In this document: positions 2 to 31,653 of the stretch, piece by piece | Layout of the letters: each line of letters opens with the position of its first letter | How positions within the stretch are numbered: the first letter of the stretch is position 1 | DNA from: a virus | Length of the DNA stretch: 31,955 nucleotides | Virus genome (UHGV): UHGV-0175171 | Reading direction: 5' to 3' (one strand) | Made by a program: the position numbers and the translations under genes | The notes under the pieces: generated by a model | Database searches by the model: none | What the model was told of the DNA's origin: nothing | What the model saw: the letters and a program-made list of their open reading frames with translations, nothing else

Positions 2-1738
2 GCGGAAAACTTAAATCTGTATGTGAAAAGGATACGTTTACTTGAAACAATGGATGATCCAGAAGCTGTAATTCTGTGTGATCAGGGGGTATCAGCTTTT
101 AAGGGTCTGAATATATCTGAAGGTGAGCTTGGGCGATGGATGGAACAAGTACAGGCTGGTATGTGGGACGGTTCACATTTAGTACTGGAATCGATCGATA
201 GGTTCAGCCGCCAAAACCCCTTTACCCTTGTAGGTTATCTTTCACGTTTGGTTGAACATGATATCACGCTACATGATGTGTCCCTAAACCTGCTGATTAA
301 CCGTTCTAACAGTGCGATGTTACCAATCGTTACTATGTCAGCACAGCGTGCATATGAGGAATCGAAAATCAAAAGTGATCGTATACGCGATGGGTGGAGA
401 CGGAAGAGGGAACAGGCATTCAATAACGGTACAATCGTTACTAACAAGCGTCCACAGTGGATTGATATTCGTGATGATCAATATGTATTGAATGATAAAG
501 TGCATATAGTAAAAGAAGTATTTCGCCTCGCACAGTCCGGTATTGGTACACCTACTATTGCCAAGATACTAAATGCAAAGGGTGATGACTGGCTTTTCGA
601 AAGTGGGCGGCAGTGGCGGGGTGAATCAGTACATAAGCTTTTAAAGAATAAGCGTGTGACTGGTTCAATTTTTATTAGTGAAATTATTCGTGATTATAAT
701 AGTACTTCAAATCCAGTAGACCAGAAACGATATGAAATGGACGTGTACCCAATAGTCATATCAAAGGAAGAGTTTAATTTAGTACAGCAATTACTACGCT
801 CACGACGTGCCAACACTGGACGAATTAGTACGAATAAAGATACTGATGAATTGAAGAAGTCAAATATCTTTAATAGTATCTGTAGGTGTGGGAAATGTGG
901 TGAGGCAATGTATCATAATGTTGTTAAGTCTCACCGCAACTCAAAAAAGAATGGTAAGTTCACTGAAGAGTATAGATACATTCGGTGTCTTGGGGAACGT
1001 GATAATCTATGTGACAATAAAGCACTACGTTATGAGGTAGTAGAGCAGTTTGTTCTTGAATACCTAAAAGGTATGGATTTTTCCCGTATATTAAAACCCA
1101 ATAACCACAAAAGTGAGATTGATGTACTGAGACTCAATATCGATGAAGAGAAGAAGCATATCAGGGAATACCGTCAGGGGATTGAAAAATTAAAATCAAT
1201 GGGGAAGAAGGTTCCCTTTGATGTGCTGGTAGAGCTTGAGGAATCGCAGAAGCGACTAAGTGACCTTGAAGAAAAAGAAAGTAAGTATACAGATTTAACT
1301 GTTGATACTGAGTACTTAAAATCTGTTGATCCTTCTGTACTATTTGATCAGGGTAACATTGAAGTACGTTCCAGGATTGAAAAGGAATTATCAATGCTAC
1401 TGGAGAGTATCGTACTACATAGACTTGATAAGCACTATATAATCACCCTTGAATATACACAGGTCAACATACTTAAACATGTACTTTTTATTGAGGCTGG
1501 AAAGATTCCAGTACTAATGTCTACTCTTAGTATTGAGAAGTACAATGATGAACATATCTATACTATGCCTTCTTTTTCTATAAGGTGCGGAGAGGGAGTG
1601 CCAGAAATTCATGGTGAGGCTATAAGCCTGGTAGATTACTCCCTTCTATTAAACTACATAGATGGTGTTGATGGTTCAGAGTATGTTTCGGAGTGGATGC
1701 GAACAAATCAAAATTTTATCTTTAGTAAAGAAACTTGA
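2..1738 (+). CDS. large serine recombinase (phage integrase type), 5'-partial: reading frame is open to the window edge
   Basis: ORF 23..1738 has no stop upstream in frame (frame opens at nt 2). Resolvase-type motif ESIDRFSRQ, a recombinase domain, a Cys-rich zinc ribbon (CRCGKCGEAMYH...IRCLGERDNLCDN) and a C-terminal coiled-coil region, the layout of large serine recombinases. The catalytic-Ser N-terminus is expected upstream of the window. Confidence 0.85.
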   Translation, partial: AENLNLYVKRIRLLETMDDPEAVILCDQGVSAFKGLNISEGELGRWMEQVQAGMWDGSHLVLESIDRFSRQNPFTLVGYLSRLVEHDITLHDVSLNLLINRSNSAMLPIVTMSAQRAYEESKIKSDRIRDGWRRKREQAFNNGTIVTNKRPQWIDIRDDQYVLNDKVHIVKEVFRLAQSGIGTPTIAKILNAKGDDWLFESGRQWRGESVHKLLKNKRVTGSIFISEIIRDYNSTSNPVDQKRYEMDVYPIVISKEEFNLVQQLLRSRRANTGRISTNKDTDELKKSNIFNSICRCGKCGEAMYHNVVKSHRNSKKNGKFTEEYRYIRCLGERDNLCDNKALRYEVVEQFVLEYLKGMDFSRILKPNNHKSEIDVLRLNIDEEKKHIREYRQGIEKLKSMGKKVPFDVLVELEESQKRLSDLEEKESKYTDLTVDTEYLKSVDPSVLFDQGNIEVRSRIEKELSMLLESIVLHRLDKHYIITLEYTQVNILKHVLFIEAGKIPVLMSTLSIEKYNDEHIYTMPSFSIRCGEGVPEIHGEAISLVDYSLLLNYIDGVDGSEYVSEWMRTNQNFIFSKET

Positions 1739-2471: not shown

Positions 2472-2630
2472 ATGGAATGGCTAGTAACTATGTTTGTAAT
2501 GGTAGTTGGTATGTTATTAATGGTATCTGGGATAATTAAAGTAGTATTTCCGGTAGTAATACTTTTTATGTCGTTTTATGCGGTTGGATGCCTTTTTACC
2601 TGCTTTCTGATAAATAAACGTGATAAATAA
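2472..2630 (+). CDS. small hydrophobic membrane peptide (52 aa, two predicted TM helices)
   Basis: Internal ATG of ORF 2361..2630, preceded by a GAGGGA RBS. Sequence MEWLVTMFVMVVGMLLMVSGIIKVVFPVVILFMSFYAVGCLFTCFLINKRDK is almost entirely hydrophobic with a basic C-terminus. Confidence 0.5.
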   Translation: MEWLVTMFVMVVGMLLMVSGIIKVVFPVVILFMSFYAVGCLFTCFLINKRDK

Positions 2631-2697
2631 TAAGATTTTTGGGATGCCTCATTTTTAGGTGATATAATAAGGGTATCTCCATGAAAAAATAAACAAA

Positions 2698-2728
2698 CCC
2701 CCTTTGCAGTTTTAAGGGGGATGTTTTT
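2698..2728. terminator. intrinsic terminator, probably bidirectional
   Basis: Stem ccccctt/aaggggg with a 9-nt loop, flanked by an A-run upstream and TGTTTTT downstream. Confidence 0.6.
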
Positions 2729-2781
2729 GCTTTGAGAAAACCGCAAAACGAAATCATTCCATTAGAGGAGGTAATAAGCCT

Positions 2782-2940
2782 ATGGGTAAACCCATAAAAA
2801 GTAAAACTATTACAGTACGGATTACAGAGGAACAACAGCAGTACATTGACATGCTGATAGTACAAGGTAATGGAAAAACTAATGCCGCTGCTATTCAGTA
2901 TCTTATAAACAAACATATCGTACTACATCCAAAAGGATAA
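2782..2940 (+). CDS. ribbon-helix-helix (CopG/Arc-like) DNA-binding protein, 52 aa; not in the supplied ORF track
   Basis: ATG at 2782 preceded by AGAGGAGG. Translation MGKPIKSKTITVRITEEQQQYIDMLIVQGNGKTNAAAIQYLINKHIVLHPKG shows the beta-strand (TITVRI), helix A and helix B pattern of RHH repressors. The overlapping minus ORF 2596..2916 runs through a terminator and is low-complexity. Confidence 0.55.
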   Translation: MGKPIKSKTITVRITEEQQQYIDMLIVQGNGKTNAAAIQYLINKHIVLHPKG

Positions 2941-2997: not shown

Positions 2998-3501
2998 ATG
3001 AAAAAGGTAAATGACCTAAAAGGAAAAAACAAAAATCTACCACTCGCAAAAAAAGCACTGAAACGTTGGAATACGATTCACAACCGCGTAGCGAGCAACA
3101 AAAACTATACTAACGTCACTATTTGTGATGAGTGGTACACATTCAGCGAATTCTACGAATGGTTCAAAGAGAACTATGTTGAAGATTGGGACATTGATAA
3201 AGATATTTGTGGTTCAAAAGAATATAGTCCTAAGACAAGTATTTTCGTACCACACTTCATCAATCTGATGTTCAGGGATGTGAATAATATTCACGGGAAA
3301 GGTGTTTCAATAACCAGAAATGGGAAATACCAAGCACAAGCAAAATGGAATGGTATTCCCCAAAAATTCGGGACGTTCAACAGTTGCCAGGAAGCTACAG
3401 CAGCATATGAGGCAGAGCGTAAACAGTATCTTTATCAACTATCCGTAGACTATGGTTCATATACAGAGCTAAGTAATCTACTCCGAAAACACTCAAAGTA
3501 A
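2998..3501 (+). CDS. AP2-domain DNA-binding protein (phage HNH-associated AP2 type)
   Basis: C-terminal GVSITRNGKYQAQAKWNGIPQKFGTFNSCQEATAAYEAERKQYL matches the AP2 pattern (GV..-.-G.W.A.I..NG....LG.F...EEAA.AY). N-terminal W-x-R-x-N-x-Y...C-DEW...F-x-W segment is typical of phage AP2 proteins. Confidence 0.6.
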   Translation: MKKVNDLKGKNKNLPLAKKALKRWNTIHNRVASNKNYTNVTICDEWYTFSEFYEWFKENYVEDWDIDKDICGSKEYSPKTSIFVPHFINLMFRDVNNIHGKGVSITRNGKYQAQAKWNGIPQKFGTFNSCQEATAAYEAERKQYLYQLSVDYGSYTELSNLLRKHSK

Positions 3502-3508
3502 TAAAAAA

Positions 3509-3533
3509 GGGCATACATTGTGAGTGTATGCCC
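3509..3533. other. 9-bp perfect hairpin (gggcataca / tgtatgccc) between the AP2 gene and the next gene
   Basis: Inverted repeat with a 7-nt loop. An A6 run lies upstream; there is no T-run downstream, so it would only terminate in the minus direction or act as a processing or regulatory stem. Confidence 0.35.
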
Positions 3534-3567
3534 AATTAACAAAATACATTTTACAAGGATATTTATC

Positions 3568-4044
3568 ATGGCAAGAACACCAACAAAAACAGACAATACA
3601 CCATTTATCAAAATCGCTGGAAACTTTAAAAAGTACAGTGATCTTACACAGGAAGGAAAAAACATAGTACTGGATATTATCAGTGAAAGTGCTGGTGAAA
3701 AGAAATATCCAGCAAAGAAAGCATACTATGTTCTATTCAATTGCACTGAAATTAGTAAGGAAACGGTTAAGTACTGGTTACAGCGTTACTATGCAGAAAA
3801 CTCCAATGAGTCAGCACCAACTGACAGTACTGTGCGTAAGTTTCTAACCATAACAAAAAAACTATCTGTTGCCTTAGTAGATGCCCACAGTAGAGGTGTG
3901 AAGCTTTTCAAGGTGGCTAAAGATGGCATGTGTTACTTATCACCAGTACAGAAGTATACAATCGATAAGATGTATAACAATGGTGCATCGGCAGAGGAAT
4001 TGATTATTGAACTACAGAAAATCATAGATAATAATGCGAACTAA
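3568..4044 (+). CDS. hypothetical protein (158 aa), possible DNA-binding protein
   Basis: Internal ATG of ORF 3520..4044 with an AAGGA RBS; the track start at 3520 is a GTG inside the hairpin. The 3' end overlaps the first copy of the TTCGCATAAT-type repeats. No confident domain call. Confidence 0.5.
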   Translation: MARTPTKTDNTPFIKIAGNFKKYSDLTQEGKNIVLDIISESAGEKKYPAKKAYYVLFNCTEISKETVKYWLQRYYAENSNESAPTDSTVRKFLTITKKLSVALVDAHSRGVKLFKVAKDGMCYLSPVQKYTIDKMYNNGASAEELIIELQKIIDNNAN

Positions 4045-4159
4045 ATGGTTCGCATAATACCCGTTTAGTTCGCATAATAGGGCATAATGCGACTTTTGCG
4101 ATCCTCTGTAACCCTTGGTATGACTGGGTTTGTCAATTATGCGAACCATTATGCGACCT
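4031..4159. repeat. cluster of at least five copies of a ~10-bp motif TTCGCATAAT / ATTATGCGAA in both orientations (iteron- or operator-like)
   Basis: Copies at ~4031-4041 (degenerate), 4048-4059, 4067-4078, 4136-4148 and 4148-4159, plus the related GCATAATGCGAC at 4082-4093; followed by a very AT-rich segment (4160-4225). Confidence 0.6.
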
Positions 4160-4695
4160 TATTATAATTATATTTTTCTATTTGATATTTTAAGTATATG
4201 TAATCGCCATATTATCATATGAAGTGATAATGCTCGTAAACTCGCATCATCACTTAAAATAAAAATAAGGGATAAACTTGCGTTTTTTGCAGTCCCTTAC
4301 GGAACTACAAAAGCACGCCCGGTTTCCTGACTCGCTGTAGCTCAGACAACAAAAGTGATTTGGGTAGTACAGTACTGACTTAAAGTGTTTGGGGTCGGAC
4401 TGACGTCCTAAAGTATTAGTGAGTTCTACGCGTCGCATAGCTCCTTGTCTGGGTCGTTCGCTGTTAAAGCTCACTAAGGTACTCAGGGACTTCAGTACTG
4501 ACATACTATCAATTAAGTACTCCCATGTACTCAAACCCAATGTAATTAATACAGTGTGACGCCGCGAAGACGGAGGAACACGCCACCCGCCGAAAGGCAT
4601 ACTATGAGGAAATGAAAGTGAGTAGGGGAACAGTGTAAACCAATCAGACAAGGAAATAAACTGACCTTTTGCACCTAGATATTACTAATAGAACT

Positions 4696-4731
4696 TTATT
4701 CAAAACACCAGATGCAATTAAAAATCTGGTG
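4696..4731 (-). terminator. intrinsic terminator of the minus-strand cassette
   Basis: Stem caccagat/atctggtg (8 bp, 10-nt loop) followed on the minus strand by TTTTG, immediately downstream of the stop of gene 4747..5343. Confidence 0.55.
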
Positions 4732-4746
4732 CTTGAGGTCTCATGC

Positions 4747-5343
4747 TTATTTGGGAAAGGTAAAAATTTCTTCAATATTCATCTTTAATGATTTTGAGTC
4801 GAGGATTATTTTATCTTTGAGGTCATTGAGACTGGAAATCATCAACTCAGGTCTATCATCAGAGACTACTGATCTAAAAACAATAATACCAAAGGCTTCA
4901 TTATAGTATTCCGTTAATCTGTAAAATGACTCTTTTAATTCTTTTGGATATGTTATTTTCCAACGTGCACATGATGATAGTTTTGATGATAATTCAAACG
5001 TTTCATATATCTGTTTAGATATTTGTGAGGACAAATTCTCAAATTTTGATTCTGACGAACGAACAGTAATGATATCAAAATGCAATTCTTGTATCTTTAA
5101 TACCTGTTGGTCATATTCAGCCATAACAGCGGTTACATGATTAAACCCTGCTTCATTGTTCTTTGTCTGTAGCCAATGAGGGGCTGCTTTGAATGCTTTA
5201 TAAGCAACCCAAGCAGTAAAGGCCGTACTGGATGCACTAATCCAATCCGTGAAACTCCCCCATTCAACATCATTGAAAATATATTTTATCAAAGAGGCAC
5301 CTAAAAGTAGAAAAAGTATTATTTTTAGGGTTGATTTATTCAT
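4747..5343 (-). CDS. membrane protein with two N-terminal TM helices and a helical cytoplasmic domain; paralog of 5355..6065
   Basis: ORF; N-terminus MNKSTLKIILFLLLGASLIKYIFNDVEWGSFTDWISASSTAFTAWVAYKAF shares the inter-helix motif (F/V)EWGSFTDWISASS with the adjacent gene. Confidence 0.6.
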   Translation of the reverse strand: MNKSTLKIILFLLLGASLIKYIFNDVEWGSFTDWISASSTAFTAWVAYKAFKAAPHWLQTKNNEAGFNHVTAVMAEYDQQVLKIQELHFDIITVRSSESKFENLSSQISKQIYETFELSSKLSSCARWKITYPKELKESFYRLTEYYNEAFGIIVFRSVVSDDRPELMISSLNDLKDKIILDSKSLKMNIEEIFTFPK

Positions 5344-5354
5344 TGTCTAATGCC

Positions 5355-6065
5355 TTAAAAATAAATGAAAAGTGTATTTAATGCACGATTATTTGAAAAA
5401 ATGTAGGTTTTGGCTTCTGATAGATGCGTTGATAATCTAATTGTATTAGGGATTAAGCTATCAAAAGTGTTATACATCTTGCGTCTTACGTGGTCAAACT
5501 CAGACATTTTTAAACCCCGCAATAAAGCTATTATATTACTAATGTGTCGAATTAATAATTCGACGGTATTTGTGACCGCAGTACATATTTTTTCAAATTC
5601 AGATGTAGGCTTGTAACGAAATAACTTCATTACATTAATGTCATTTTCTAACTGCTGAGATGTAACTTCCAACTCAGTAATGGCATCAAGTAAATATGCT
5701 TGCATTGACTCTAAAACAGAGTCTTTAAGATGGTGATCATATCCATTAACTCTATGCCTATAGTTTTTTAGTTTGAATTCAATTTTCTCAATAGTAATGA
5801 ATAGTTTTGGGTAATGCTGTGTAATAATTTGTTTTTGCAGCAAGTAAGCATCATCTCTATATTTGTCTTTTTGCCAACGAGAGTAGACATAGAATGCAAA
5901 AATCAAAGTGATAATACTGGAACTTGCACTGATCCAATCGGTGAAACTACCCCATTCAAATCCCTTACTACCAGAAAATAGAATCTTAACGAGAACTAAG
6001 ATAGCTACAAATAAAAGTAGCGAGACTAGGCCAATAAGGGTAGTGTTTGCAATTTTAATATTCAT
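5355..6065 (-). CDS. membrane protein with two N-terminal TM helices and a helical cytoplasmic domain; paralog of 4747..5343
   Basis: ORF; motif GFEWGSFTDWISASSSIITLIFAFYVY. Its start overlaps the stop of the upstream gene (ATGA at 6062-6065), suggesting translational coupling. Confidence 0.6.
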   Translation of the reverse strand: MNIKIANTTLIGLVSLLLFVAILVLVKILFSGSKGFEWGSFTDWISASSSIITLIFAFYVYSRWQKDKYRDDAYLLQKQIITQHYPKLFITIEKIEFKLKNYRHRVNGYDHHLKDSVLESMQAYLLDAITELEVTSQQLENDINVMKLFRYKPTSEFEKICTAVTNTVELLIRHISNIIALLRGLKMSEFDHVRRKMYNTFDSLIPNTIRLSTHLSEAKTYIFSNNRALNTLFIYF

Positions 6066-6613
6066 AATTTATCAGCTATGTTAATTTCACTATAGAGTAA
6101 GTCTTTCAATTTAATCAAAGCTTCCCAAATTTCAGTTGGCTTATTGCTGCAATTTCTTAGTAATATTTCATCATTTTCATATTTACTCAATGATGGATCA
6201 TAAAACCGTGTTCCTAATTCTTGAAAATCATTGATAGCATTAGTAACCGTCCAAATCGCATCATGCATTTGTGGTGTCATGTATAATGTATAATCAAGAA
6301 GGAAGTCACTTGCTTTACTTTTAATTAAATCCTGTTTATAAAGCATAATTTGATCTAAAAGATCACCATCATCATAAAAATTAAAATTTGCTGGAAGATT
6401 CAGGGAATTAATGAACTGAATGAAAGGTTTAATAATTTGCTTTTTTTCTTTCAATTCATCTTCGAGTACTTTGAATAATAGTTGCTTTTTAATCTTTTCG
6501 TTTTCAGATTTTTTAGTGATGAGTTGACTTGCCAATGTTACACCCGCAGCTATTAAAGCACCGCCTAAAGTACCGCCGACTGCAATGAGTTGTGTAATGG
6601 TTTCAGCTTCCAT
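6062..6613 (-). CDS. membrane-anchored protein (one N-terminal TM helix, helical soluble domain), unknown function
   Basis: ORF; N-terminal ITQLIAVGGTLGGALIAAGVTLASQLI hydrophobic segment followed by a KE-rich helical region. Confidence 0.55.
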   Translation of the reverse strand: MEAETITQLIAVGGTLGGALIAAGVTLASQLITKKSENEKIKKQLLFKVLEDELKEKKQIIKPFIQFINSLNLPANFNFYDDGDLLDQIMLYKQDLIKSKASDFLLDYTLYMTPQMHDAIWTVTNAINDFQELGTRFYDPSLSKYENDEILLRNCSNKPTEIWEALIKLKDLLYSEINIADKL

Positions 6614-6680
6614 GATTTTAGAAATCCAATATATAAACGTGAAAAAAGAATTTTACCATAATAACCAATTTGACGTAAAC

Positions 6681-6757
6681 TATCAGCGATATCCCCCTCC
6701 CATAAAGGGTAGGTGGTTTGTTTAGTTTGTTGGTGTGTGAGGGGGATATCGCTGATA
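6681..6757. repeat. perfect 19-bp inverted repeat (TATCAGCGATATCCCCCTC ... GAGGGGGATATCGCTGATA) with a 39-nt G/T-rich spacer
   Basis: Read directly: arms at 6681-6699 and 6739-6757. A second hairpin (gtgctgc/gcagcac, 6761-6780) follows immediately. Confidence 0.7.
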
Positions 6758-6820
6758 GAAGTGCTGCCAGTTAGCAGCACTGAGTAATGTATGGTGGGTC
6801 TGCGTTAGTACACTTAACGT

Positions 6821-6846
6821 TTGGTTATGGTTATGGTTATGGTTGA
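6821..6846. repeat. hexamer tandem repeat (GGTTAT)x3 + GGTTGA
   Basis: ttggttatggttatggttatggttga read directly, ~20 nt downstream (in coordinates below) of the stop of gene 6864..7778 on the minus strand. Confidence 0.7.
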
Positions 6847-6863
6847 GATTGACTCAATATATT

Positions 6864-7778
6864 TCAGCAGTTTCTTACGATTCTATCGTATCGTTCTACA
6901 AAAGTTATTATTTTCAACTGATCTTGATTATATGTATCAACCCATTTCTTCATAGCATCTTCTATTATGTAGAGAAAATCAACAAGGTTAAAGTAGGTCG
7001 TATCCCCAATAGTGGTTGTCTTAAATGAATTTCTTTGATGTATTGCAAAACTAATTCGTCTCACCTTCTCTTGTTTTACTTTCTGACTATCAAGATTAGA
7101 CATATGTATTAATGAATTGCGGAGTTCCCAAAGCTCATCAGAAGTAACTTCCAAAGAAGATAAATCTGCATAGGTGTTAAGCCATTTTGTAAAGTTATGG
7201 TGCTGACCAAAATCAACCCAGGCAATTGTATCAATGAATGAAAAAAGTAACTTTATGCAGCTTAAGTAATGTTTATTATTAAATAGATAGTGAATTGGTT
7301 CAAAATGATCATCCTTAAGAAGTTGAGCCATGTCAAAAGTATTACCGACATAGTATTTTGAAAGATAATCATTATGATTTGAAAATTCGTATCCTGAGAA
7401 TTTATCAATATGATGTTGACGAAGTGGTTCAAAATCTAAACGATGTTGGTTCATTATTTTACCGTTCTGGATTGGGGTAATCAAATGTAAGCAGTCATCA
7501 CCAAGATTATAAGGTGCTAAAACATCAGAGAAAATTAAAGTCAAATTGTCTGTACGCATCATTGCATTAATTTTTGCTAATGAAACTCCATTTTCTTTAT
7601 CTTTGATTTCTTGTGGAATATCACCAAAATTTGCATCTGAAAGGTCAAGGCCAACTTTAGATAAGAGGAAATGACACATTTCCTCTTCTGTTCCTGAATG
7701 CTCATACAGTACAAAAGCAACATGTGTTATTAAATCATCAGTTGCGAAGTAATATAAGTTAAGAAGTTTATGTTTCAT
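6864..7778 (-). CDS. hypothetical protein with an R-N-x3-H (HEPN-like) motif; candidate abortive-infection or RNase-type effector
   Basis: Start moved to the ATG at 7778 (GGAGGA RBS, 5-nt spacer); the track start at 7790 is a GTG. Motif ELRNSLIHM at residues ~220-225 fits the HEPN R-[N]-x3-H signature. No other domain recognised. Confidence 0.5.
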   Translation of the reverse strand: MKHKLLNLYYFATDDLITHVAFVLYEHSGTEEEMCHFLLSKVGLDLSDANFGDIPQEIKDKENGVSLAKINAMMRTDNLTLIFSDVLAPYNLGDDCLHLITPIQNGKIMNQHRLDFEPLRQHHIDKFSGYEFSNHNDYLSKYYVGNTFDMAQLLKDDHFEPIHYLFNNKHYLSCIKLLFSFIDTIAWVDFGQHHNFTKWLNTYADLSSLEVTSDELWELRNSLIHMSNLDSQKVKQEKVRRISFAIHQRNSFKTTTIGDTTYFNLVDFLYIIEDAMKKWVDTYNQDQLKIITFVERYDRIVRNC

Positions 7779-7790
7779 AAGTTCCTCCAC

Positions 7791-14781
<6,991 letters not shown>

Positions 14782-15222: not shown

Positions 15223-16905
15223 ATGGCTTTTATTACTAACAACACAAGTGTATGGATTAACACCGACACATTAAACAGTGATCCCAAATCTAAGGGATTT
15301 AAAGAAGTACCAGAATTAAGCGGATTCCCTTCATTCGGTCACAGTACTGAAACCCTTGCCATTGAAACATATGACTCTGAATACATCGAAAAGGTAGTAG
15401 GTAATAGCACCTATGGCGATGTCACTATTACGGTTAACTGGGTTCCATCAAAACATAAGTTTCTCGATGACATCGTAAAAAGTCGCCAATTAGTACAAAT
15501 GAAGGTAGAGATCCCCGATGAAGGACAGAATGACCTTACGGTTAACTATGCACTTTATAATGGTTATCTGGCTTCTGTATCTACCAGTGGTGATTATGAT
15601 TCTGTTACTTCCCGTTCCTATGTATTCACCCCAAACGAACAACTTTCTGCGGGTATTCTTGACAGTACGATAGTCCCTCTAAATCGCGGAGACTGGGGCG
15701 TAGGTGCAAACGGTATTGAGTTTCCAAGTTATCAGGGGCGTGATGGTAACGCTTTTATTAAGATCCCAGGTGCAGGTTCACCAACAGGGACAGATGTACT
15801 TGGTATTAATAACCTTGATTCTAACTTTGGTACACAACTGGTTATCAGTAAGACAGGTACGCCAATAATTAACGTGCGTAACTATGGTGCATCTATGGGG
15901 GCATGGTACAAGGTCTATACCAGTGCTGATAAACCTACACTGGCAGAACTGGGTGCTGCATCAAGTGCATCTCTTGCAGACTACGTACCGATTACCCGTA
16001 CCATCAATAGCAAACCACTAACTGGTAATATTACACTACTGGCTTCTGATATCGCTGATGTATACAGTAAGACGTATATAGATCAGAACGTAGTCCCAAA
16101 AGTATTCCAGTTAAACGGTCATGCACTATCCGGTACGGCATTAAACTTAGTTGCCGCAGATATTCTTGATGTGTATTCACAGACTCAGGTTGATACGTCA
16201 TTTGTAAAAAAAACAACTACTGTTAACGGTTTAAGCCTTTCCCAGAATATAACACTGACAGCCGCACAACTCCCAGACATGGCGAGTATTGTTTTTACTA
16301 ATAACACATATGTACCAAAAACATACTTAATCAACAATAAGCCATTAACAGGAACTAACATTCAATTAGTTGCTGCTGATATTCCTGATGTGTACTCACG
16401 TACTCAGTCAAATGATCTATTTGCACTACGTATCACCACTATTAACGGGTATGCTCTTAACAGCAATATAGTACTGAATTTTGATGATGTAGGAACATAT
16501 TCAAAGAAACAGATCGATGACAAAGACAAGGTACTAAAGGAAGAGATTGATACGAAGGTAACAATTGTAGATGATATTCTTAAACTAAATACCCTTGTAA
16601 ATAATTCATTAGAAATAGATTTGAGTGATAGTAAAACTACATTCACAGTGACTCTATCACAACCAACGTCAAACTTCTCTGTACTAAATGCAAGTGGTAA
16701 TGACAAAAAGAGTCAAACATTTCAGGTGCTTATTAAACAGGGTACAGGGGCAAATAAAATATCCTGGCCTACAAACATTTTATGGTCTTATGGGCGTGTT
16801 CCAGTATTAACCTTTACAAAAGATTCTACTGATGTATTTCAGTTTGTCACAGTAGACGGGGGTAGTACTTGGTACGGCTCTCTACTAATGGCAGATATGA
16901 AATAA
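15223..16905 (+). CDS. tail tube protein paralog with a long C-terminal extension carrying ~5 phage-tail-fibre-type repeats
   Basis: N-terminal ~150 aa are clearly homologous to the protein at 19814..20290 (shared VNW.P, Q.KV, NGY..S...GD.DSV..R..V.T pattern). C-terminal repeats such as NSKPLTGNITLLASDIADVYSKT, NGHALSGTALNLVAADILDVYSQT and NNKPLTGTNIQLVAADIPDVYSRT. Confidence 0.6.
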   Translation: MAFITNNTSVWINTDTLNSDPKSKGFKEVPELSGFPSFGHSTETLAIETYDSEYIEKVVGNSTYGDVTITVNWVPSKHKFLDDIVKSRQLVQMKVEIPDEGQNDLTVNYALYNGYLASVSTSGDYDSVTSRSYVFTPNEQLSAGILDSTIVPLNRGDWGVGANGIEFPSYQGRDGNAFIKIPGAGSPTGTDVLGINNLDSNFGTQLVISKTGTPIINVRNYGASMGAWYKVYTSADKPTLAELGAASSASLADYVPITRTINSKPLTGNITLLASDIADVYSKTYIDQNVVPKVFQLNGHALSGTALNLVAADILDVYSQTQVDTSFVKKTTTVNGLSLSQNITLTAAQLPDMASIVFTNNTYVPKTYLINNKPLTGTNIQLVAADIPDVYSRTQSNDLFALRITTINGYALNSNIVLNFDDVGTYSKKQIDDKDKVLKEEIDTKVTIVDDILKLNTLVNNSLEIDLSDSKTTFTVTLSQPTSNFSVLNASGNDKKSQTFQVLIKQGTGANKISWPTNILWSYGRVPVLTFTKDSTDVFQFVTVDGGSTWYGSLLMADMK

Positions 16906-19763
16906 TGAAACCACACAATATAGATAATGCATATCAAATGATCGAAGGTCAGTTTAAGTTCTTGGCACGTAATACTGGCCTTACAACAAATAATAAGACA
17001 CAGCACTACGTATTAAACCCGGATAATGTACTTGCAAATAACCGTCACTTTATTGCAGAAACTGGATGGGAAGCACAGCCGGAAGGTGACGCAACTACAG
17101 AAGGTCAAAGCCTCCAGATTCTGGGGGCAATATATGTGTATCAGGCAACTAAAGACCCTTTCTATCTACAGAAGGCAAAAGAGTACTTTAATGCATATCA
17201 CAAGGCGTTCTATCGTGGTGCAGCATTTCCAGATCCACCGAGTTCATCACTACGCTGTAACTGGATTTGTAATGGAAAGGCTCCAGTACTGGCACACTAC
17301 CCATTAGATCCCGAATATCCGACGCATGGTGGATTTAAAGGGACACTATTCACATGGGCTAATGGCCTTACAAAGATCCCACATGGTGCTCCACACTGGG
17401 GTGAATACCTCGATGCAGTATGGTTTGCCTTCCCTAAGCGTGCGGGACTTGGTTGGAATCAGGTTAACGCAACCGCTTATATGTGGCTTACCAATGAAGA
17501 CTCAATAGACTGGGACACAAAAGCACCAACCTATGACGTCGAATGGATCATTGATCGTACCGGACGTAAGGTAGACTCAAACGGCACAGTACTGCAATCC
17601 GGTCTTACAGGTCAGGAAGGTACAGTACAGTTAAAGAATAAAACCATTACTGGTGAATATCGTTTTAACTATGCAACCCGAAACCCTGTAGAACATGGCG
17701 GGTATATGTTCAAGCGTAATGAACGCTGGCATAACCGACCTGTACACGTACCGATTGATAACTATGGTTCTTTGGACTTCTCTGATAATGCATCAGATGC
17801 CGAATTATGGTTTTGTCAGGCAGCCAAGTTACTTTGGGATATTACAGGAGAACGCCAGTATTATCTTGCGTGGCAATGTGCACTATTAACCTGTTATGGT
17901 TATTCAGATATTGACAAGTACGATATGTTCTTTCGTAAATCTACTATTGCCGTAACACCTTTTACTGATGGTATTTCATACGACTACTTCTACCCAAGTG
18001 AGCAAGTAGCATCATATTCCCGTGATGCACAGGGTTATATTGTAATAAATCAAAGTGCATCCGCACAGACGATGTTAGAACAACAATCAATCTGGTTTAA
18101 ATTCAATAATAACTCAAAATTTCACATTGAATATGGTGGTGTTGATAATACCAGTACTGCAATGTCAGTATCTGCTGAAGTCACAGTGAATAAAACAAAG
18201 ACAGAAGAGGGTGCAATTGATTATCGGTGTGGCTTACCAATGACTAATCCAGATGGATCTATTACTACAATGGACATTCCTATGAATCGTTTCACACGTG
18301 TGATGAAACCAGATGGCTCTAATTATATGACTGCCGATCTACGTATGATTGCCGATTATGGAGATAACACGGTAACAAACTTTGAATATCAGAGTGGAGT
18401 ACTTGGGAAGTATTACGATAACGTCGTGTCTACAACAATGGATGGTGACGGGGGACAGGTGGTGGGGTTTTGGATATTCACACCAGAGACTGCCAATATT
18501 CAGTCTTTTACCTATCGTTCATATGATGATGATTTTAACTTTCGTATAAGTGATGATAATAAATGGCGTTGGTGGGCTATGCTCCCTGCAACAAATGGTG
18601 AATGGGTTACAAAGACTTTTACTATTGCTGACTTCAAACTAAACGGTTATCAACCAGATCACCCCGAAATTGAAGATCCAGATAACCCAGGAGAATGGAT
18701 TCAACCAGATCCAATTCCAGCAAGCCCAGTACTAACGAACCGTGAATCTTTCACACTGCTACTTGATACAGATCCAGTAAATGGTGTGAATGGAAAGATT
18801 GACTGGTATTGTATTAATGATTTGCCTGCGATGTATACAGATGCTGGGACAGGTGATTATTCGGTCACAGTACTGCTTACGTTTAACGACACAACTGGTA
18901 ATGGATACACAGCACGATTAGGTGACTGTACTATTAAAGATTATATGTTAGATAGTCTTGCGTATACTCCCGGTTTAATTCCGTTCTCTAACATTACCGA
19001 TCCCTATGCCCAGTTATATTCTGGCTGGCGTGGTCTACCGTATCCTGGTTATCAACTACCGGCGATCTGGTGCTTTAAAGGAACAGAAATAGATCATACT
19101 CGCTTAAATAACAGTATCAATTTTCTATATGATTCTCAGGCATGGTTTAAAAATAAATTTAAACCATCTTTACCAGGACCATGTGCACAGGCTTTCGTAT
19201 GGAACAGACAGGACGCTTTAGCATATGCTCCTGATGGTAAACCAGATCAATTCATAATGCAGCACTGGTACGCCGAAGCATGGAGTGGATACGAACCAAG
19301 GGCTTTCTTTGGTGGGTGTGATGCAGTACATGAATTATGGTCACGACAAGACAGTACTGTAATACCTCCTAAACTAATATCTTTCTGTCAGAACTGGATG
19401 AACTATCTAAAATGGTTCATGAAAAATAATGTCGGTAAAGCTCCTACCTATTTTAGGGATAATGGTTCTGTAGAATATGATGGCTTTACCCCTCATATGT
19501 CAGGTCTATGGTTAGCAGGGGCATGCATGATGGCTATCGCCGGATATCCAGACCATGAGCTAATTCAATTACTATTTGATGAAATACAACTTAACTATGC
19601 AGTTATTTCACCAAATCATGTAATGAATGGTACATGGCCTGCGTCAATCAGAACAGGTAATGAAACAACTGCCGAAAACAATAGTATGTTCTTTAGTTTC
19701 TATTCGGGTGAACTTTTACGCGGATTGGGGCTATATGTGCAGTACTACAATCTTCATAAATAA
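16905..19763 (+). CDS. large Trp/Tyr-rich protein of unknown function (951 aa), located between the two tail-tube paralogs
   Basis: Long ORF; ATG at 16905 in a TAATG overlap (the track start at 16869 is a TTG). Sequence is aromatic-rich, like carbohydrate-active or binding proteins, but no motif I can name with confidence. Confidence 0.5.
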   Translation: MKPHNIDNAYQMIEGQFKFLARNTGLTTNNKTQHYVLNPDNVLANNRHFIAETGWEAQPEGDATTEGQSLQILGAIYVYQATKDPFYLQKAKEYFNAYHKAFYRGAAFPDPPSSSLRCNWICNGKAPVLAHYPLDPEYPTHGGFKGTLFTWANGLTKIPHGAPHWGEYLDAVWFAFPKRAGLGWNQVNATAYMWLTNEDSIDWDTKAPTYDVEWIIDRTGRKVDSNGTVLQSGLTGQEGTVQLKNKTITGEYRFNYATRNPVEHGGYMFKRNERWHNRPVHVPIDNYGSLDFSDNASDAELWFCQAAKLLWDITGERQYYLAWQCALLTCYGYSDIDKYDMFFRKSTIAVTPFTDGISYDYFYPSEQVASYSRDAQGYIVINQSASAQTMLEQQSIWFKFNNNSKFHIEYGGVDNTSTAMSVSAEVTVNKTKTEEGAIDYRCGLPMTNPDGSITTMDIPMNRFTRVMKPDGSNYMTADLRMIADYGDNTVTNFEYQSGVLGKYYDNVVSTTMDGDGGQVVGFWIFTPETANIQSFTYRSYDDDFNFRISDDNKWRWWAMLPATNGEWVTKTFTIADFKLNGYQPDHPEIEDPDNPGEWIQPDPIPASPVLTNRESFTLLLDTDPVNGVNGKIDWYCINDLPAMYTDAGTGDYSVTVLLTFNDTTGNGYTARLGDCTIKDYMLDSLAYTPGLIPFSNITDPYAQLYSGWRGLPYPGYQLPAIWCFKGTEIDHTRLNNSINFLYDSQAWFKNKFKPSLPGPCAQAFVWNRQDALAYAPDGKPDQFIMQHWYAEAWSGYEPRAFFGGCDAVHELWSRQDSTVIPPKLISFCQNWMNYLKWFMKNNVGKAPTYFRDNGSVEYDGFTPHMSGLWLAGACMMAIAGYPDHELIQLLFDEIQLNYAVISPNHVMNGTWPASIRTGNETTAENNSMFFSFYSGELLRGLGLYVQYYNLHK

Positions 19764-28487: not shown

Positions 28488-28754
28488 ATGGTAGAATTGG
28501 TAATTGCAGGGATTGCAGTTTTTCTAACTTTTGTAGCATTAATCTGGACTATCATTCGTGATAATAAGACTGATGATGCAGAAATAGAAGCACGTCTTGC
28601 CTCAGTAGAAACACGACTTGCACTTGTAGAACAATCTGTTACTACATTACGAAGTGAGCATGAAGCTATGAAGATTACTCTTAAGTCAGTTGATGAATCA
28701 ATCAGACGACTTGAAGTAGATATTGCACGTATTCTTGTGATACTTGAAAAATAA
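28488..28754 (+). CDS. small protein with an N-terminal TM helix and a coiled coil (unknown function)
   Basis: 88-aa ORF with an AAGGGAA RBS; hydrophobic N-terminus then heptad-like helix; ends at a strong terminator. Confidence 0.45.
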   Translation: MVELVIAGIAVFLTFVALIWTIIRDNKTDDAEIEARLASVETRLALVEQSVTTLRSEHEAMKITLKSVDESIRRLEVDIARILVILEK

Positions 28755-28779
28755 AAAGGGGCTTAATGCCCCTTTTTTA
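28754..28779. terminator. strong bidirectional intrinsic terminator
   Basis: Perfect stem aaaaggggc/gcccctttt with a 5-nt loop, between the convergent stop codons at 28752-28754 (+) and 28777-28779 (-); T-runs on both sides. Confidence 0.8.
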
Positions 28780-29223
28780 TTTGTTAATTAAATCTTTAAT
28801 CATTTGGTCAAGTCTATTCGGTGTCTGACGATACCATAAACTATCCTTTGCCTGTTTAATTGCTTCTGTATAATTATTGTTTTGTAATGCAATGATCATC
28901 TTTTTAAACTTCTTAGTACCACCTAAGCCTAACTGAAAAATCATAATAACCATGAAGTCTTCCCAGTCCTGTGGTAATTTCAAATTTAAGGTAGATAAAT
29001 CACGTTTGGCAATGCCAATATCTTTATCCAGTAGTTTATCTGCTTCATCCTCGTTAATGCCGTTAGAGAACGATTCAGAGGCTTTTAGTAGATGTCCATA
29101 TCCAATCGTATCTTTGTTCTCACTACATTTATACACCCAGAATTTACCATTGCGATAATAACCCATATGGGCTTGGTATTCTTTCGTACCTTCATATACT
29201 TTTAATTTTTCTCTTAAACACAT
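28777..29223 (-). CDS. endolysin, T4-type lysozyme (glycoside hydrolase family 24)
   Basis: LKVYEGTKEY...TIGYGHLL and SLWYRQTPNRLDQM match T4 lysozyme LKIYKDTEGYYTIGIGHLL and SRWYNQTPNRAKRV (recalled). Start placed at the ATG at 29223 (GAGG RBS); the ORF is open to 29277. Confidence 0.85.
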   Translation of the reverse strand: MCLREKLKVYEGTKEYQAHMGYYRNGKFWVYKCSENKDTIGYGHLLKASESFSNGINEDEADKLLDKDIGIAKRDLSTLNLKLPQDWEDFMVIMIFQLGLGGTKKFKKMIIALQNNNYTEAIKQAKDSLWYRQTPNRLDQMIKDLINK

Positions 29224-29259
29224 AAATACCTCATAAATTATTGTTTGTGGGGTATTTAT

Positions 29260-29688
29260 ATGAAATGGACAATGCATGATCCTGAGACATGGGATTATGA
29301 AGATATAAATGACGGGAGGTATGCAGCTTTTGTATATATGATCACTTTTGACGATGGTTCATATTATTTTGGTGTAAAGTCAATCTTCAAAGGTATTCGG
29401 GATGTAAAGAAGCTGAAGCCAACTACAAAGGAATCCAACTGGGAGAATTATTATTCTTCCTCAAAGAAAGTGCAGGCAATGGTCGATTCAGGTCTGAACT
29501 ATGAAAAACAAATACTATGGTGTTTCAGTACGACGAATGAAGCCGAGCAGGTAGAAGCGGCGTTGATTCTATTCTTAGGACAGCAATCAAATAATTTGAA
29601 TCTTGCCGTGATGTGTAAAGTACGGCTTGGTAAAAATCGTTCTGAAACATTCAAAGTACTGCAACAATTATTAGAGAGGTTATCATGA
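29260..29688 (+). CDS. free-standing GIY-YIG nuclease domain protein
   Basis: AAFVYMITFDDGSYYFGVKS (GIY...YIG motifs), downstream conserved Arg and an acidic NEAEQVE segment with a terminal Asn; ~143 aa with no obvious DNA-binding extension. Confidence 0.55.
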   Translation: MKWTMHDPETWDYEDINDGRYAAFVYMITFDDGSYYFGVKSIFKGIRDVKKLKPTTKESNWENYYSSSKKVQAMVDSGLNYEKQILWCFSTTNEAEQVEAALILFLGQQSNNLNLAVMCKVRLGKNRSETFKVLQQLLERLS

Positions 29689-30278
29689 AATGGAAGAATG
29701 GTCATTCACCAGATGATATGAAAAAATTTGTTAATAAAAATTCCCCAAAGATCGGTAAACACTTCAAAAAAGAACTAAGTAATCGTATGCGTAATGTTAC
29801 CCAACAGATACAGCATAAAATTAACCAGGAAGTAGATGGTGGTGTAATTCCATATACGGGTAGAGCGATGTACTTTAATTTTAAACGGCTTAATGAATTT
29901 GAGAGTGTAAACCAGATTATAGTACTGGGAAATCAGGCGAGATACTTAAAGCATATTATTGACCCTGATTATGTAGGGAATAAGGAATATAAAGCGATCC
30001 CATACCAAAACGCCAAGAAGACAAAACAGGGTAATATAAGTCAACTTAAATCAAAGCGTAAGAACGATAAATATAAAAAAGTGAAGAGTAAGACGTCTGG
30101 AAAGACATATCTAATCGACACTACCAAGAAGACGAAAACGAGTAAGGAACGTGTTATTGGTTATTATGGAAGTGTTGGAAGAAAACCAATATTTGATTTT
30201 TATGACACAACCGAAAAAATGGTATTACGACAACTTCAAACTATGAGTGGTACATTCGAATATAAATGGAGAAAATAA
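29685..30278 (+). CDS. hypothetical Lys-rich basic protein
   Basis: ORF coupled to the upstream gene (ATGA overlap); highly basic C-terminal half. Confidence 0.5.
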   Translation: MKWKNGHSPDDMKKFVNKNSPKIGKHFKKELSNRMRNVTQQIQHKINQEVDGGVIPYTGRAMYFNFKRLNEFESVNQIIVLGNQARYLKHIIDPDYVGNKEYKAIPYQNAKKTKQGNISQLKSKRKNDKYKKVKSKTSGKTYLIDTTKKTKTSKERVIGYYGSVGRKPIFDFYDTTEKMVLRQLQTMSGTFEYKWRK

Positions 30279-30598
30279 TGAATATACTTGATCAATATCC
30301 CTGTTATGACCATACCGTACTGGATGAATTCCTATTTCAAAACGTCAAACCTGTAAGTGTTACTTTGCCATATGACAAAGTGTTTTCGGGTAGCAAGTTA
30401 ATTAAAAAGAAGGTAGATAAGAGTAAAGGGGATTTGATTGTATTCAGTTTCAATCTAAACAATATTCCGAATGTTAATGATGGTGATGTACTCGATACCG
30501 TATGTCTTGGTGATAATAAGACAGTAGCAGTACTGTCATGTTTTAATCAAGTCTACAAAGGTCATCGCGTTTGGTCAGTCGTATGCCAGTTACAATAA
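30278..30598 (+). CDS. hypothetical protein
   Basis: ORF with a TAATG overlap and a GGAG RBS; the track start at 30266 is less likely. Confidence 0.5.
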   Translation: MNILDQYPCYDHTVLDEFLFQNVKPVSVTLPYDKVFSGSKLIKKKVDKSKGDLIVFSFNLNNIPNVNDGDVLDTVCLGDNKTVAVLSCFNQVYKGHRVWSVVCQLQ

Positions 30599-30609
30599 GG
30601 AAATGAAAT

Positions 30610-30900
30610 ATGATAAATGCAATCTCCGTATTAATTAGTACGATAATGAGTCTTTTTACAAAGACAAAAATAATTGAAAAAGAGGAACATAAAACTAACA
30701 CTGATGGACAGATTGAGACAAATAAAATTGAAATTGAGCAAAACACCTTTCACTGGAGAAACTTCCTTGGTTTTGTACTTTCCCTAATCATTTTATATAA
30801 TTGGATAATTGTTCCTGTTCTTGATGCGTTTGGTATTGTATTAATACAAATTCCACTAGGTGAGCTACTACAGATACTTTTAATCATGGTGGGTGGTTGA
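30610..30900 (+). CDS. small membrane protein (2-3 TM helices), holin-like
   Basis: 96-aa ORF with an AAGGAAA RBS; hydrophobic N-terminus and two C-terminal hydrophobic helices; in the neighbourhood of the endolysin. Confidence 0.4.
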   Translation: MINAISVLISTIMSLFTKTKIIEKEEHKTNTDGQIETNKIEIEQNTFHWRNFLGFVLSLIILYNWIIVPVLDAFGIVLIQIPLGELLQILLIMVGG

Positions 30901-31584
30901 CTTAGTAATTACAAATAATGACCTCCAGGTGTTCATCCAAGATGTAGATAGAATCTGTGTTAAGGCATAGCATTGATTGAAGCTAATTTGATTGAACTCA
31001 TATGATTTTTTACGAGCCATGCCATTAACATCTTTATATGAAAAGATCATCATTTGGCTAAGCTCTGAAAATTTATATAAAGTACTAATGTACTGGGTTA
31101 TGCCATCTCGTTGATCTGGTCTTATTTCGATTTCCCAAACTTTTAATATGTCTTTTTGTGAAGAAAGCACAGATAAATGAGTTTTAAAATCTAACCATAA
31201 TGTCTCAATTTCATTATTGAGTTTTTCATAATGTGGGTCTGTTTTTCCCAAATTTTTGGTGCCTAAATAGCAATACATATTCATTATGTGCTCAAATACT
31301 TTTTCTGACTTTAATTTAGCATCGGATAAATGAACAATAAAATTATTTGCTTGTTCGAATCCTTTCGTATGTGTCTTTTCATTGTACCAATTTTTGACTT
31401 TATATAGTGTATAAGTAGCAATGCTTGCCAATACTGTATCCATAATGGCAGATACAGTAGAACTATTAAATTCATGAAAACCTAAGACATCTATATATAT
31501 CGGGATCAGTATTCCGACTGCTAAACAAGCTATATGAGAAAATTTAATTTGTTTAACTAATTTTTTAAAATGATGTTTTTTCAT
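30880..31584 (-). CDS. membrane protein with two N-terminal TM helices; third member of the 2-TM family seen at 4747..6065
   Basis: Inter-helix segment GFHEFNSSTVSAIMDTVLASIATYTLY resembles GFEWGSFTDWISASSSIITLIFAFYVY of 5355..6065. Start uncertain (ATG at 31584 preferred over the TTG at 31626; no clear RBS). Confidence 0.5.
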   Translation of the reverse strand: MKKHHFKKLVKQIKFSHIACLAVGILIPIYIDVLGFHEFNSSTVSAIMDTVLASIATYTLYKVKNWYNEKTHTKGFEQANNFIVHLSDAKLKSEKVFEHIMNMYCYLGTKNLGKTDPHYEKLNNEIETLWLDFKTHLSVLSSQKDILKVWEIEIRPDQRDGITQYISTLYKFSELSQMMIFSYKDVNGMARKKSYEFNQISFNQCYALTQILSTSWMNTWRSLFVITKSTTHHD

Positions 31585-31653
31585 ATAAGAGATTTTAATC
31601 ACCGATGAATAGATTGTCGAATTCAAGAGTTCTCAGATAATCTTATGATCTAC

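Follow-up and report, generated by a model that had tools for sequence, protein, structure and literature searches.

The 31,955-nucleotide (nt) virus genome UHGV-0175171 (hereafter the window, meaning the whole stretch of DNA that was analysed) carries between positions 4747 and 7778 four minus-strand genes, designated A, B, C and D, which encode a protein with the HEPN-typical motif RNxxxH and three small membrane proteins. The best explanation of this region, given about an even chance of being right, is that it represents a slot for variable cargo in a temperate phage that a large serine recombinase has inserted into the Escherichia coli gene ybhA, and that it holds independently assorting units rather than one coupled membrane-RNase machine. 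The genes and the non-coding elements around them are listed below, the promoter-like sites and hairpins being predictions from the DNA sequence.

7883-7910, minus strand: promoter-like site upstream of A, TTGAAA-16-TATATT, 10 of 12 positions matching the consensus
6864-7778, minus strand: gene A, 304 residues
6760-6781, minus strand: short GC-rich hairpin 3' of A, AGTGCTGC-loop-GCAGCACT
6680-6758, minus strand: long hairpin with a perfect 20-bp stem and a CA-rich loop of about 39 nt, the 5' boundary of the B module
6650-6679, minus strand: promoter-like site for B-C-D, TTTACG-18-TAAAAT with TG, a consensus match directly after the long hairpin
6062-6613, minus strand: gene B, 183 residues
5355-6065, minus strand: gene C, 236 residues, of a superfamily with two transmembrane (TM) helices and a four-helix bundle
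5919-5957, minus strand: joint motif EWGSFTDWISASS in C, a recurrent recombination breakpoint
4747-5343, minus strand: gene D, 198 residues, a paralogue of C in the same superfamily with another C-terminal domain
5227-5265, minus strand: joint motif EWGSFTDWISASS in D
4703-4734, minus strand: terminator-like hairpin followed by TTTT, after D

An earlier note on this DNA had described four minus-strand open reading frames (ORFs) lying against plus-strand neighbours, and its structural account holds: the coordinates and the plus-strand immediate flanks are as it gave them, the ELRNSLIHM that it had reported in A is present as residues 218-226, and the one or two N-terminal TM helices that it had placed before cytoplasmic domains are found as a single helix in B and as hairpins in C and D, with charges in agreement. 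The ATGA overlap that it had noticed between the first two membrane genes is real and joins B to C, the motif that it had seen in two of the proteins is common to C and D, and the terminator with which it had closed the cassette corresponds to the hairpin at 4703-4734 (inverted repeat I9; folding free energy -14.1 kcal/mol, z -2.1), which was found by folding and inverted-repeat search, its 10-nt loop being beyond the limit of the promoter/terminator scanner. C and D are spaced by 11 nt. The start codon of A is taken as the ATG at 7778 rather than the GTG at 7790 because the former is preceded by GGAGGA, a strong ribosome-binding site. Directly past the A stop codon lies a CCATAA microsatellite of three to four units (6826-6848), of which one locus, L009, carries one unit more.

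The 250-nt gap between A and B, whose short hairpin, 20-bp stem and promoter-like site had been overlooked in the earlier note, contains the boundary between two modules. The short hairpin is kept together with the 3' end of A in L019 and L021 and is absent from the locus of E. coli 55989, which has no A; on sequence grounds it is assigned to the A module. The long hairpin (-39.6 kcal/mol, z -5.0, with none of 200 shuffles equally stable) carries four compensatory changes in its stem relative to E. coli 55989, where DNA homology begins exactly at this stem, inside the A-B spacer, and the promoter-like site that follows is conserved in the same alignment. In L019 the stem is partly degraded. 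The idea that this hairpin is an attC-like integron site was rejected for want of visible R'/R'' core sites.

Gene A is predicted to have two domains, an N-terminal alpha/beta domain of about residues 1-135 and a C-terminal HEPN-like helical domain that carries R220-N-S-L-I-H225. Its AlphaFold2 model (predicted local distance difference test score, pLDDT, 91.4; predicted template-modelling score, pTM, 0.85) places the helical domain at about 138-301, with a small beta insert. Presence of the motif means little, because Rx4H is expected about 0.26 times per 304 residues at the rate in the ORFs of the window, and RNxxxH also occurs twice in the 964-residue ORF at 16869-19763; the case for a HEPN domain therefore rests on conservation. 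HEPN RNases act independently of metal at a composite site to which two HEPN domains contribute, and their Rx4-6H motif usually has a polar residue behind the R. In A, all 85 homologues, of 32-82% identity, keep R220 and H225 without exception, N221 is at least 90% conserved, and the block around them (ELWELRNSLxHMSNLDSRKV) is the best conserved of the family. In the N-terminal half, D45 is invariant in a 26-sequence alignment and at least 90% conserved among the 85, and R75 and T101 are also conserved. The family comprises proteins of about 300 residues, with 100 matches down to 32% identity in Enterobacteria, Colwellia, Methylobacter, Pseudomonas, Opitutus, Planctomycetes and Bryobacterales. 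No Pfam domain was found in its members, Pfam, NCBIfam and PADLOC gave nothing for A or for 26 members, and two PHROGs of unknown function matched A weakly. Taken together, sequence conservation and the model make it likely that A contains a HEPN-like domain with a catalytic-type RNxxxH, and A is accordingly predicted to be a probable RNase; it is a new family and a stand-alone HEPN defence candidate that domain and defence databases do not know.

An alternative for A is that its Arg and His do not form an RNase site at all, the protein being a helical bundle with some other activity or a pure binding function whose likeness to HEPN is convergent. The absence of any significant Foldseek match of the A model in the PDB, the failure of all sequence methods (including PDB searches with the A profile and separately with its two halves, which returned no match) and an unusually long C-terminal extension past the motif speak for convergence. 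The strong enrichment of HEPN proteins among the top-ranking chains when 48,164 were searched with A speaks against it, as do the invariance of an exact HEPN-typical RNxxxH over 85 diverse sequences and an architecture and genomic setting that parallel Tha and HepS. This alternative is considered unlikely.

Two solo HEPN systems offer the nearest analogies. HepS is a "HEPN solo" abortive-infection protein of the Gifsy-1 prophage in Salmonella, which is made constitutively as an inactive tetramer, is opened by the tail-tip protein J of an invader and then cuts tRNA anticodon loops (PMC13043305). A resembles it in being a single prophage HEPN-motif protein with no conserved partner gene, and HepS likewise occurs on prophages across diverse bacteria. 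However, HepS homologues are defined as having fewer than 250 residues, no extra domain and the motif R100-H105 (PMC13043305), whereas A has 304 residues, an added N-terminal alpha/beta domain and its motif at 220-225; membership of the HepS family was therefore rejected. The profile of A and its halves gave no PDB match at E <= 10, in a set of chains among which the HepS chain was not confirmed. The trigger and target of HepS have been shown experimentally, whereas A is described here from its sequence and a predicted model. Tha-1/Tha-2 is a tail-activated HEPN system of Staphylococcus aureus prophages whose trigger is a minor tail protein (PMC11087260). Tha-1 is similar to A in length (301 residues), in an unassigned N-terminal part and in a C-terminal HEPN domain with RNSIMH (E-x-R-N-S-x-x-H), and it too is prophage cargo transcribed against its neighbours. 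The two differ in that the motif lies about 30 residues from the C-terminus in Tha and 79 in A, and in that Tha has a partner inhibitor, Ith, of which no counterpart is seen beside A. By analogy with HepS and Tha, A might act like solo HEPN abortive-infection proteins, its N-terminal domain serving as a sensor or auto-inhibitor and RNxxxH as the RNase site. A also differs from the HEPN-MNT (HepT/MntA) toxin-antitoxin RNases: it is twice the size and has its N-terminal domain, and no nucleotidyltransferase (MNT) gene adjoins A in any locus examined.

The four genes occupy a slot that lies between the early region and terS. The serine recombinase, the early genes and terS/terL are common to the sister prophages, whose cargo at this position differs. 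Comparison of the window with L002, L015, L019, L022, L026 and L031 identifies the slot as a hotspot: its position between conserved genes is fixed, and its cargo varies and includes known defence genes. Four of the compared slot types are listed here.

L002 (E. coli 55989): SMODS and SLATT, several unknown genes, B and a C-type gene (C')
L022-25 (common in E. coli; indexed in 274 blocks of the genome collection): DUF3800, 8xMP, an Hcp module and one C/D-type gene
L026: HNH, C and a D-like gene
L031 (Enterobacter): a 136-residue gene, A, EAL and three C/D-type genes

The earlier description of the genes as an accessory cassette agrees with their place between the early region and terS and with the recognised defence genes in related slots. 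The cassette is AT-rich as well, its GC content being 31-33%, compared with 39% in the structural (packaging and head) genes. All four genes are under purifying selection, with ratios of nonsynonymous to synonymous substitution (dN/dS) of 0.17-0.22 for B, C and D, and with pN of 0.12-0.22 against a saturated pS of 0.76-0.85 for A. Anti-phage hotspots have been described for P2-like phages and P4-like satellites (PMC9122126), and the likeness extends to a fixed position in a temperate phage, conserved bounds and relative-specific cargo with recognised defence genes. The differences are that the present family uses a serine recombinase, the ybhA site and a lambda-type GpA terminase and is absent from deposited phage genomes, that the position runs from the early region to terS, and that a lineage-specific membrane-protein family recurs in the slot. 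The C/D superfamily and the slot are undescribed, yet fit the known pattern of prophage cargo hotspots. In L002 (NC_011748, 4976258-4993056) the copy of the slot is degraded, its SMODS nucleotidyltransferase and SLATT genes being followed by a 267-residue Cys-rich gene, B, a C-type gene, a 273-residue gene and a C/D-type gene, and these genes adjoin a terS/terL remnant cut by IS100.

Separation of the modules is seen from both directions. Outside this prophage family, A had no B or C/D-type neighbour and no recurring partner in the loci examined, which comprised Colwellia, Opitutus, Pseudomonas, a metagenome contig, an enterobacterial island, three plasmids and five viral contigs. Its neighbours there are an integrase, a P4-type replication gene and Hachiman (Colwellia, L004); DUF4365, TIR and SIR2 (Opitutus, L006); recombinases (Pseudomonas, L007); transposases (metagenome contig, L008); Hachiman, Hcp and Hha (enterobacterial island, L016); insertion sequence (IS) elements, an integrase, an "Abi family protein" and MobQ (Pantoea, P. 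syringae and Bosea plasmids, L028-L030); and nothing recurrent in the distant viral contigs (L039-L043). In these settings A is associated with mobile elements and defence islands. Conversely, 88 complete E. coli genomes, 55989 among them, match the window at 5950-6755 only (88.6%), that is, over the long hairpin, B and the first 40 or so codons of C; at the 55989 locus B and a C-type gene stand without A behind the different Cys-rich gene. In prophages of Citrobacter koseri, C (63%) and a D-like gene occur in the absence of both A and B. Citrobacter freundii has A (82%) with a single C/D-type gene behind it and lacks B, and in Enterobacter (L031) an oppositely oriented EAL gene stands between A and three C/D-type genes. 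The full set of A, B, C and D was found only in this prophage lineage, and C/D-type genes fill the slot whether or not A is present. One locus, L009, had been a candidate for B-C-D without A, but A is there disrupted by IS1 with its 3' end still present, and it was not counted as a separation. In L019-21 (80.6% identity over window positions 5947-8298) a truncated A, a 189-residue gene in L019, precedes B, and this locus was likewise not counted. Because L009 holds an IS1-disrupted and L019-21 a truncated A, adjacency of A and B is ancestral in one sub-lineage. In two of the loci outside the family, the genes just upstream of the A homologues (L004 4911-5747 and L007 4466-5680) have their own RNxxxH, RNHSFH and RNDLLH; unrelated to each other and to A, they may by sequence be additional unannotated HEPN proteins clustered with A.

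These distributions bear on the possibility that the region encodes one four-gene defence system, with the HEPN protein as effector and the membrane proteins as sensors or anchors. On enterobacterial phage-related elements, a HEPN protein and a membrane protein lie together near the packaging region in the HEPN-TM arrangement. Such a system is mentioned in a review as existing on phage-inducible chromosomal island (PICI) satellites and is the closest known parallel to the module that the earlier note had proposed, although here A and the membrane genes assort independently. A single system would also be consistent with the adjacency and common strand of the genes, with the A-B adjacency kept in a second lineage (L019-21) and with the presence, in the slots of all five enterobacterial prophage lineages that have A, of a membrane-protein gene of C/D or 8xMP type. 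Opposed to it are the 250-nt spacer with its hairpins and its own promoter-like site, the loci with A and no B or C/D-type neighbour, the 88 genomes with B and a C-type gene and no A, the prophages with C and D and no A, the intervening Enterobacter EAL gene, and the occupation of the slot by C/D-type genes regardless of A. No conserved co-occurrence of the genes was found across genomes, an outcome that the earlier note itself had named as refuting; its membrane module coupled to an RNase effector is thereby left unsupported, and one four-gene system is judged clearly improbable.

The reading of the slot as a set of independent anti-phage units has evidence against it as well. A membrane-protein gene accompanies A in every enterobacterial prophage lineage, which leaves a small probability of a functional link within enterics. 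No homology and no specific fold match were found for B, C or D, and their defence role is proposed from location and evolutionary pattern only. Homology of A to Tha-1 of phage 80alpha was rejected: BLASTP aligns only the eight-residue motif (E 2.4), and hhalign with the 85-sequence A profile gives Tha-1 a probability of 0.55%.

The membrane proteins fall into two groups. B has one glycine-rich N-terminal TM helix (residues 9-27) and a domain of about 150 residues, whereas C and D have TM1 and a second hydrophobic helix that form a hairpin. From the flanking charges, the C-terminal domains of about 150 residues in all three are predicted to be cytoplasmic, in agreement with the model of C (pLDDT 78), in which TM1 is followed by a helix at 41-108 that leads out of the membrane and into a bundle of four helices. 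B has eight homologues, all enterobacterial, and lies directly upstream of and overlapping a C-type gene in all three lineages in which it was seen; it is 91% identical in 55989 and 75% identical in an Escherichia fergusonii-type locus, with the ATGA overlap kept and a dN/dS of 0.19. The suggestion that B is a diverged C/D member was rejected by the superfamily hidden Markov model (HMM; E 0.9). C and D are paralogous only in their first 65 or so residues (E 8e-7), and D is matched by the superfamily HMM with E 5e-46 (dN/dS 0.22). An exhaustive profile search yielded 311 representative clusters of this superfamily (164 at E <= 1e-10), mostly of 200-250 residues and restricted to Enterobacterales prophage slots; the named members, from E. 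coli, Enterobacter, Citrobacter, Lelliottia and Serratia, are all "hypothetical protein". Among 65 members, mean pairwise identity is 36% in the N-terminal 66 residues and 14.7% in the rest, and comparison of these members with Pfam, PADLOC and PHROGs left the family unrecognised. The earlier statement that none of the four proteins belongs to a named family stands, in that Pfam, NCBIfam, PADLOC (PADLOC-DB 2.0 gave no match to any of them) and PHROGs returned only noise or families of unknown function.

A third C/D paralogue, overlooked in the earlier note, lies on the minus strand at 30880-31626 (HMM E 5e-12, 36 bits, model positions 5-208; GC 30%), at the attR-proximal end of the prophage and probably starting at an internal ATG near 31584, so that the prophage carries the family at both cargo positions. 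An N-terminal TM hairpin followed by a cytoplasmic helical part, on prophage cargo, is a layout shared with the 2-TM membrane effectors of defence systems (SLATT, 8xMP/RipA-like) and with the membrane exclusion proteins RexB, SieB and HK97 gp15. Nevertheless, SLATT and 8xMP models did not match C or D (SLATT_1 reached E 0.086 in one member only), and C/D genes differ from SLATT and 8xMP systems in having no adjoining nucleotide-signalling partner gene. A viral contig (L038, 5998-6756) has an 8xMP-type (RipA-like octameric) gene 89 nt past an A homologue of 57% identity. In addition, the Serratia protein P0225 joins an 8xMP domain to a C/D-type half and is, through the 8xMP part, the sole 8xMP match among the 65 members. 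L038 and P0225 together hint that the 8xMP and C/D membrane families may be connected; a literature search on 8xMP/RipA found nothing.

The superfamily has a recurrent joint between its conserved and variable parts. The joint motifs of C and D are identical at 32 of 35 nt, with synonymous differences only, and homology to L002, L019-21 and L022-25 stops at window positions 5950, 5947 and 5934, respectively, within the motif EWGSFTDW. Two members, P0116 and P0117, are chimeras with the head of C and the tail of D. In Enterobacter (L031, 9229-10407), two tandem genes of 187 and 201 residues begin at the joint motif without TM1 and resemble orphan cassettes. A mechanism may be proposed in which the long hairpin, the promoter-like site, B and the first 40 or so codons of C travel together as a chassis, onto which different cytoplasmic four-helix-bundle domains would be recombined at the EWGSxxDW joint, C, D and the gene at 30880-31626 being three domain versions. 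Because B and the N-terminus of C are inherited as one block, B could be the partner of the N-terminal hairpin of C. Polymorphic toxin loci (contact-dependent inhibition, CDI, and Rhs) show the same conserved N-terminus, sharp junction, unrelated C-termini, chimeras and orphans that start at the junction. Unlike them, C/D proteins are small (200-250 residues), membrane-embedded and cytoplasmic-facing, have no secretion apparatus or immunity genes, and have their orphans upstream of rather than after the full-length gene; the resemblance is confined to evolutionary mechanics.

With respect to function, it is plausible that all four genes are anti-phage candidates. B, C and D would be membrane-anchored phage-exclusion proteins acting by abortive infection or superinfection exclusion, in which the variable cytoplasmic domain might recognise a phage component while the conserved TM hairpin acts on the membrane. 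A bolder proposal, which remains speculative and falls well short of an even chance, is that C, D and the third paralogue constitute a new class of membrane-anchored exclusion proteins specific to Enterobacterales prophages, in which a conserved 2-TM chassis, partnered by B in some lineages, would be re-armed at EWGSxxDW by homologous recombination from a library of cytoplasmic four-helix-bundle sensor domains that includes anchor-less orphan cassettes. Equally tentative is its joint form, in which A would at the same time found a new, widespread two-domain HEPN abortive-infection family. Non-defence roles of B, C and D, taken together, carry a comparable minor share of the probability.

The first such role is service to the phage itself, either in lysis or its timing, as proteins of holin, antiholin or spanin-like kind, or in controlling induction. 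The genes to be considered near the end of the window are as follows.

28488-28754: ORF of 88 residues with a TM helix and a coiled coil
28777-29277, minus strand: lysozyme
30610-30900: ORF of 96 residues, multi-TM and holin-like

An N-terminal TM segment with a soluble helical domain resembles the layout of large holins, antiholins and i-spanins, most of the sister prophages that were examined have a C/D-type gene, almost as a core gene of the lineage, the third paralogue is near the lysis region, and one family member has a faint match to holin_phiLC3 (E 0.08). Against these points, B, C and D are far from the late and lysis genes and oriented against them (about 21 kb to 28488-30900), the candidate lysis genes listed above stand elsewhere in the window, and the distribution of charges places the large domain in the cytoplasm. 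Moreover, one to three or more copies per prophage and extreme domain variability are unusual for lysis genes, and neither a PHROG holin or spanin match among the 65 members nor a Pfam or NCBIfam lysis match for B, C or D was obtained. A lysis role is thus as improbable as the four-gene system. Between the lysozyme and the ORF at 30610-30900 stands a plus-strand block; at 29245-29688 it includes a gene of the GIY-YIG (SegE-like) homing-endonuclease type that seems to have been inserted in the lysis cassette. Least probable of all is that B, C and D are envelope factors of lysogenic conversion or inter-bacterial conflict, such as immunity-like proteins against membrane-targeting toxins. In favour of this reading, the slots of sister prophages contain genes typical of type VI secretion cargo (Hcp, DUF1493, DUF8209 and DUF4225), arrays of diversified membrane paralogues that include orphan copies look like immunity-gene arrays, and the Enterobacter EAL gene shows that non-defence cargo also lands in the slot. 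Against it, C/D genes occur in slots without a type VI gene (the window, L015 and L026), their variable part is cytoplasmic rather than periplasmic, and no cognate toxin gene is adjacent.

The A family and the C/D family provide two concrete, cloneable candidates for undescribed E. coli anti-phage genes. The A-like family, which spans Enterobacteria to Verrucomicrobia and Planctomycetes, is recognised by no domain or defence database, and the 311-cluster membrane family is missed entirely by current defence finders. The new hotspot of the ybhA serine-recombinase prophages, from the early region to terS, could be mined systematically, as those of P2 and P4 were. Should the defence role prove true, the C/D joint would show prophages re-targeting a membrane effector by domain swap, and should the exclusion-class reading prove true, prophage immunity would have a built-in mechanism for swapping specificity. 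The locus also cautions against reading an operon-level system into genes because they adjoin and point the same way in a prophage slot.

In E. coli FDN-24 and FDN-9, genomes from chicken, a prophage 100% identical to the region is inserted in ybhA, adjoining modABC. The exact sequence of C is indexed in 165 blocks, and many draft assemblies carry the prophage; a comparison with 50,697 deposited phage genomes gave no match to the region, to A or to C at either the DNA or the protein level. The remaining features of this part of the prophage are the following.

23-1738, plus strand: large serine recombinase
2596-2916, minus strand: further ORF
2998-3501, plus strand: HNH-like gene
3520-4044, plus strand: ORF
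8234-8791, plus strand: terS, followed by a lambda-type GpA terL and the portal gene

An A7 run at 9143-9149 breaks the terL gene (8706-10620) into the ORFs 8706-9158 and 9208-10620. The same break appears in the annotation of FDN-24, and the sister prophages L001, L011 and L013 have A6 at this run and an intact gene of 638 residues; the break reflects either genuine inactivation by frameshift or an error in sequencing the homopolymer. Just past the gene at 3520-4044, positions 4030-4160 contain six or more copies of the 11-mer GTTCGCATAAT or its complement, facing both ways; these repeats correspond to the iteron block of the earlier note and, by sequence, look like an operator or origin array. 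An Rfam scan of 3900-8300 gave nothing credible, including for the roughly 450 nt of non-coding, GC-richer DNA at 4250-4700, which contains internal repeats (GTACTGAC) and inverted repeats. Within it, positions 4371-4476 are 85% conserved in Citrobacter koseri prophages despite differing flanks, and the stretch could, from these sequence features, be an unrecognised RNA or a cis-acting site.

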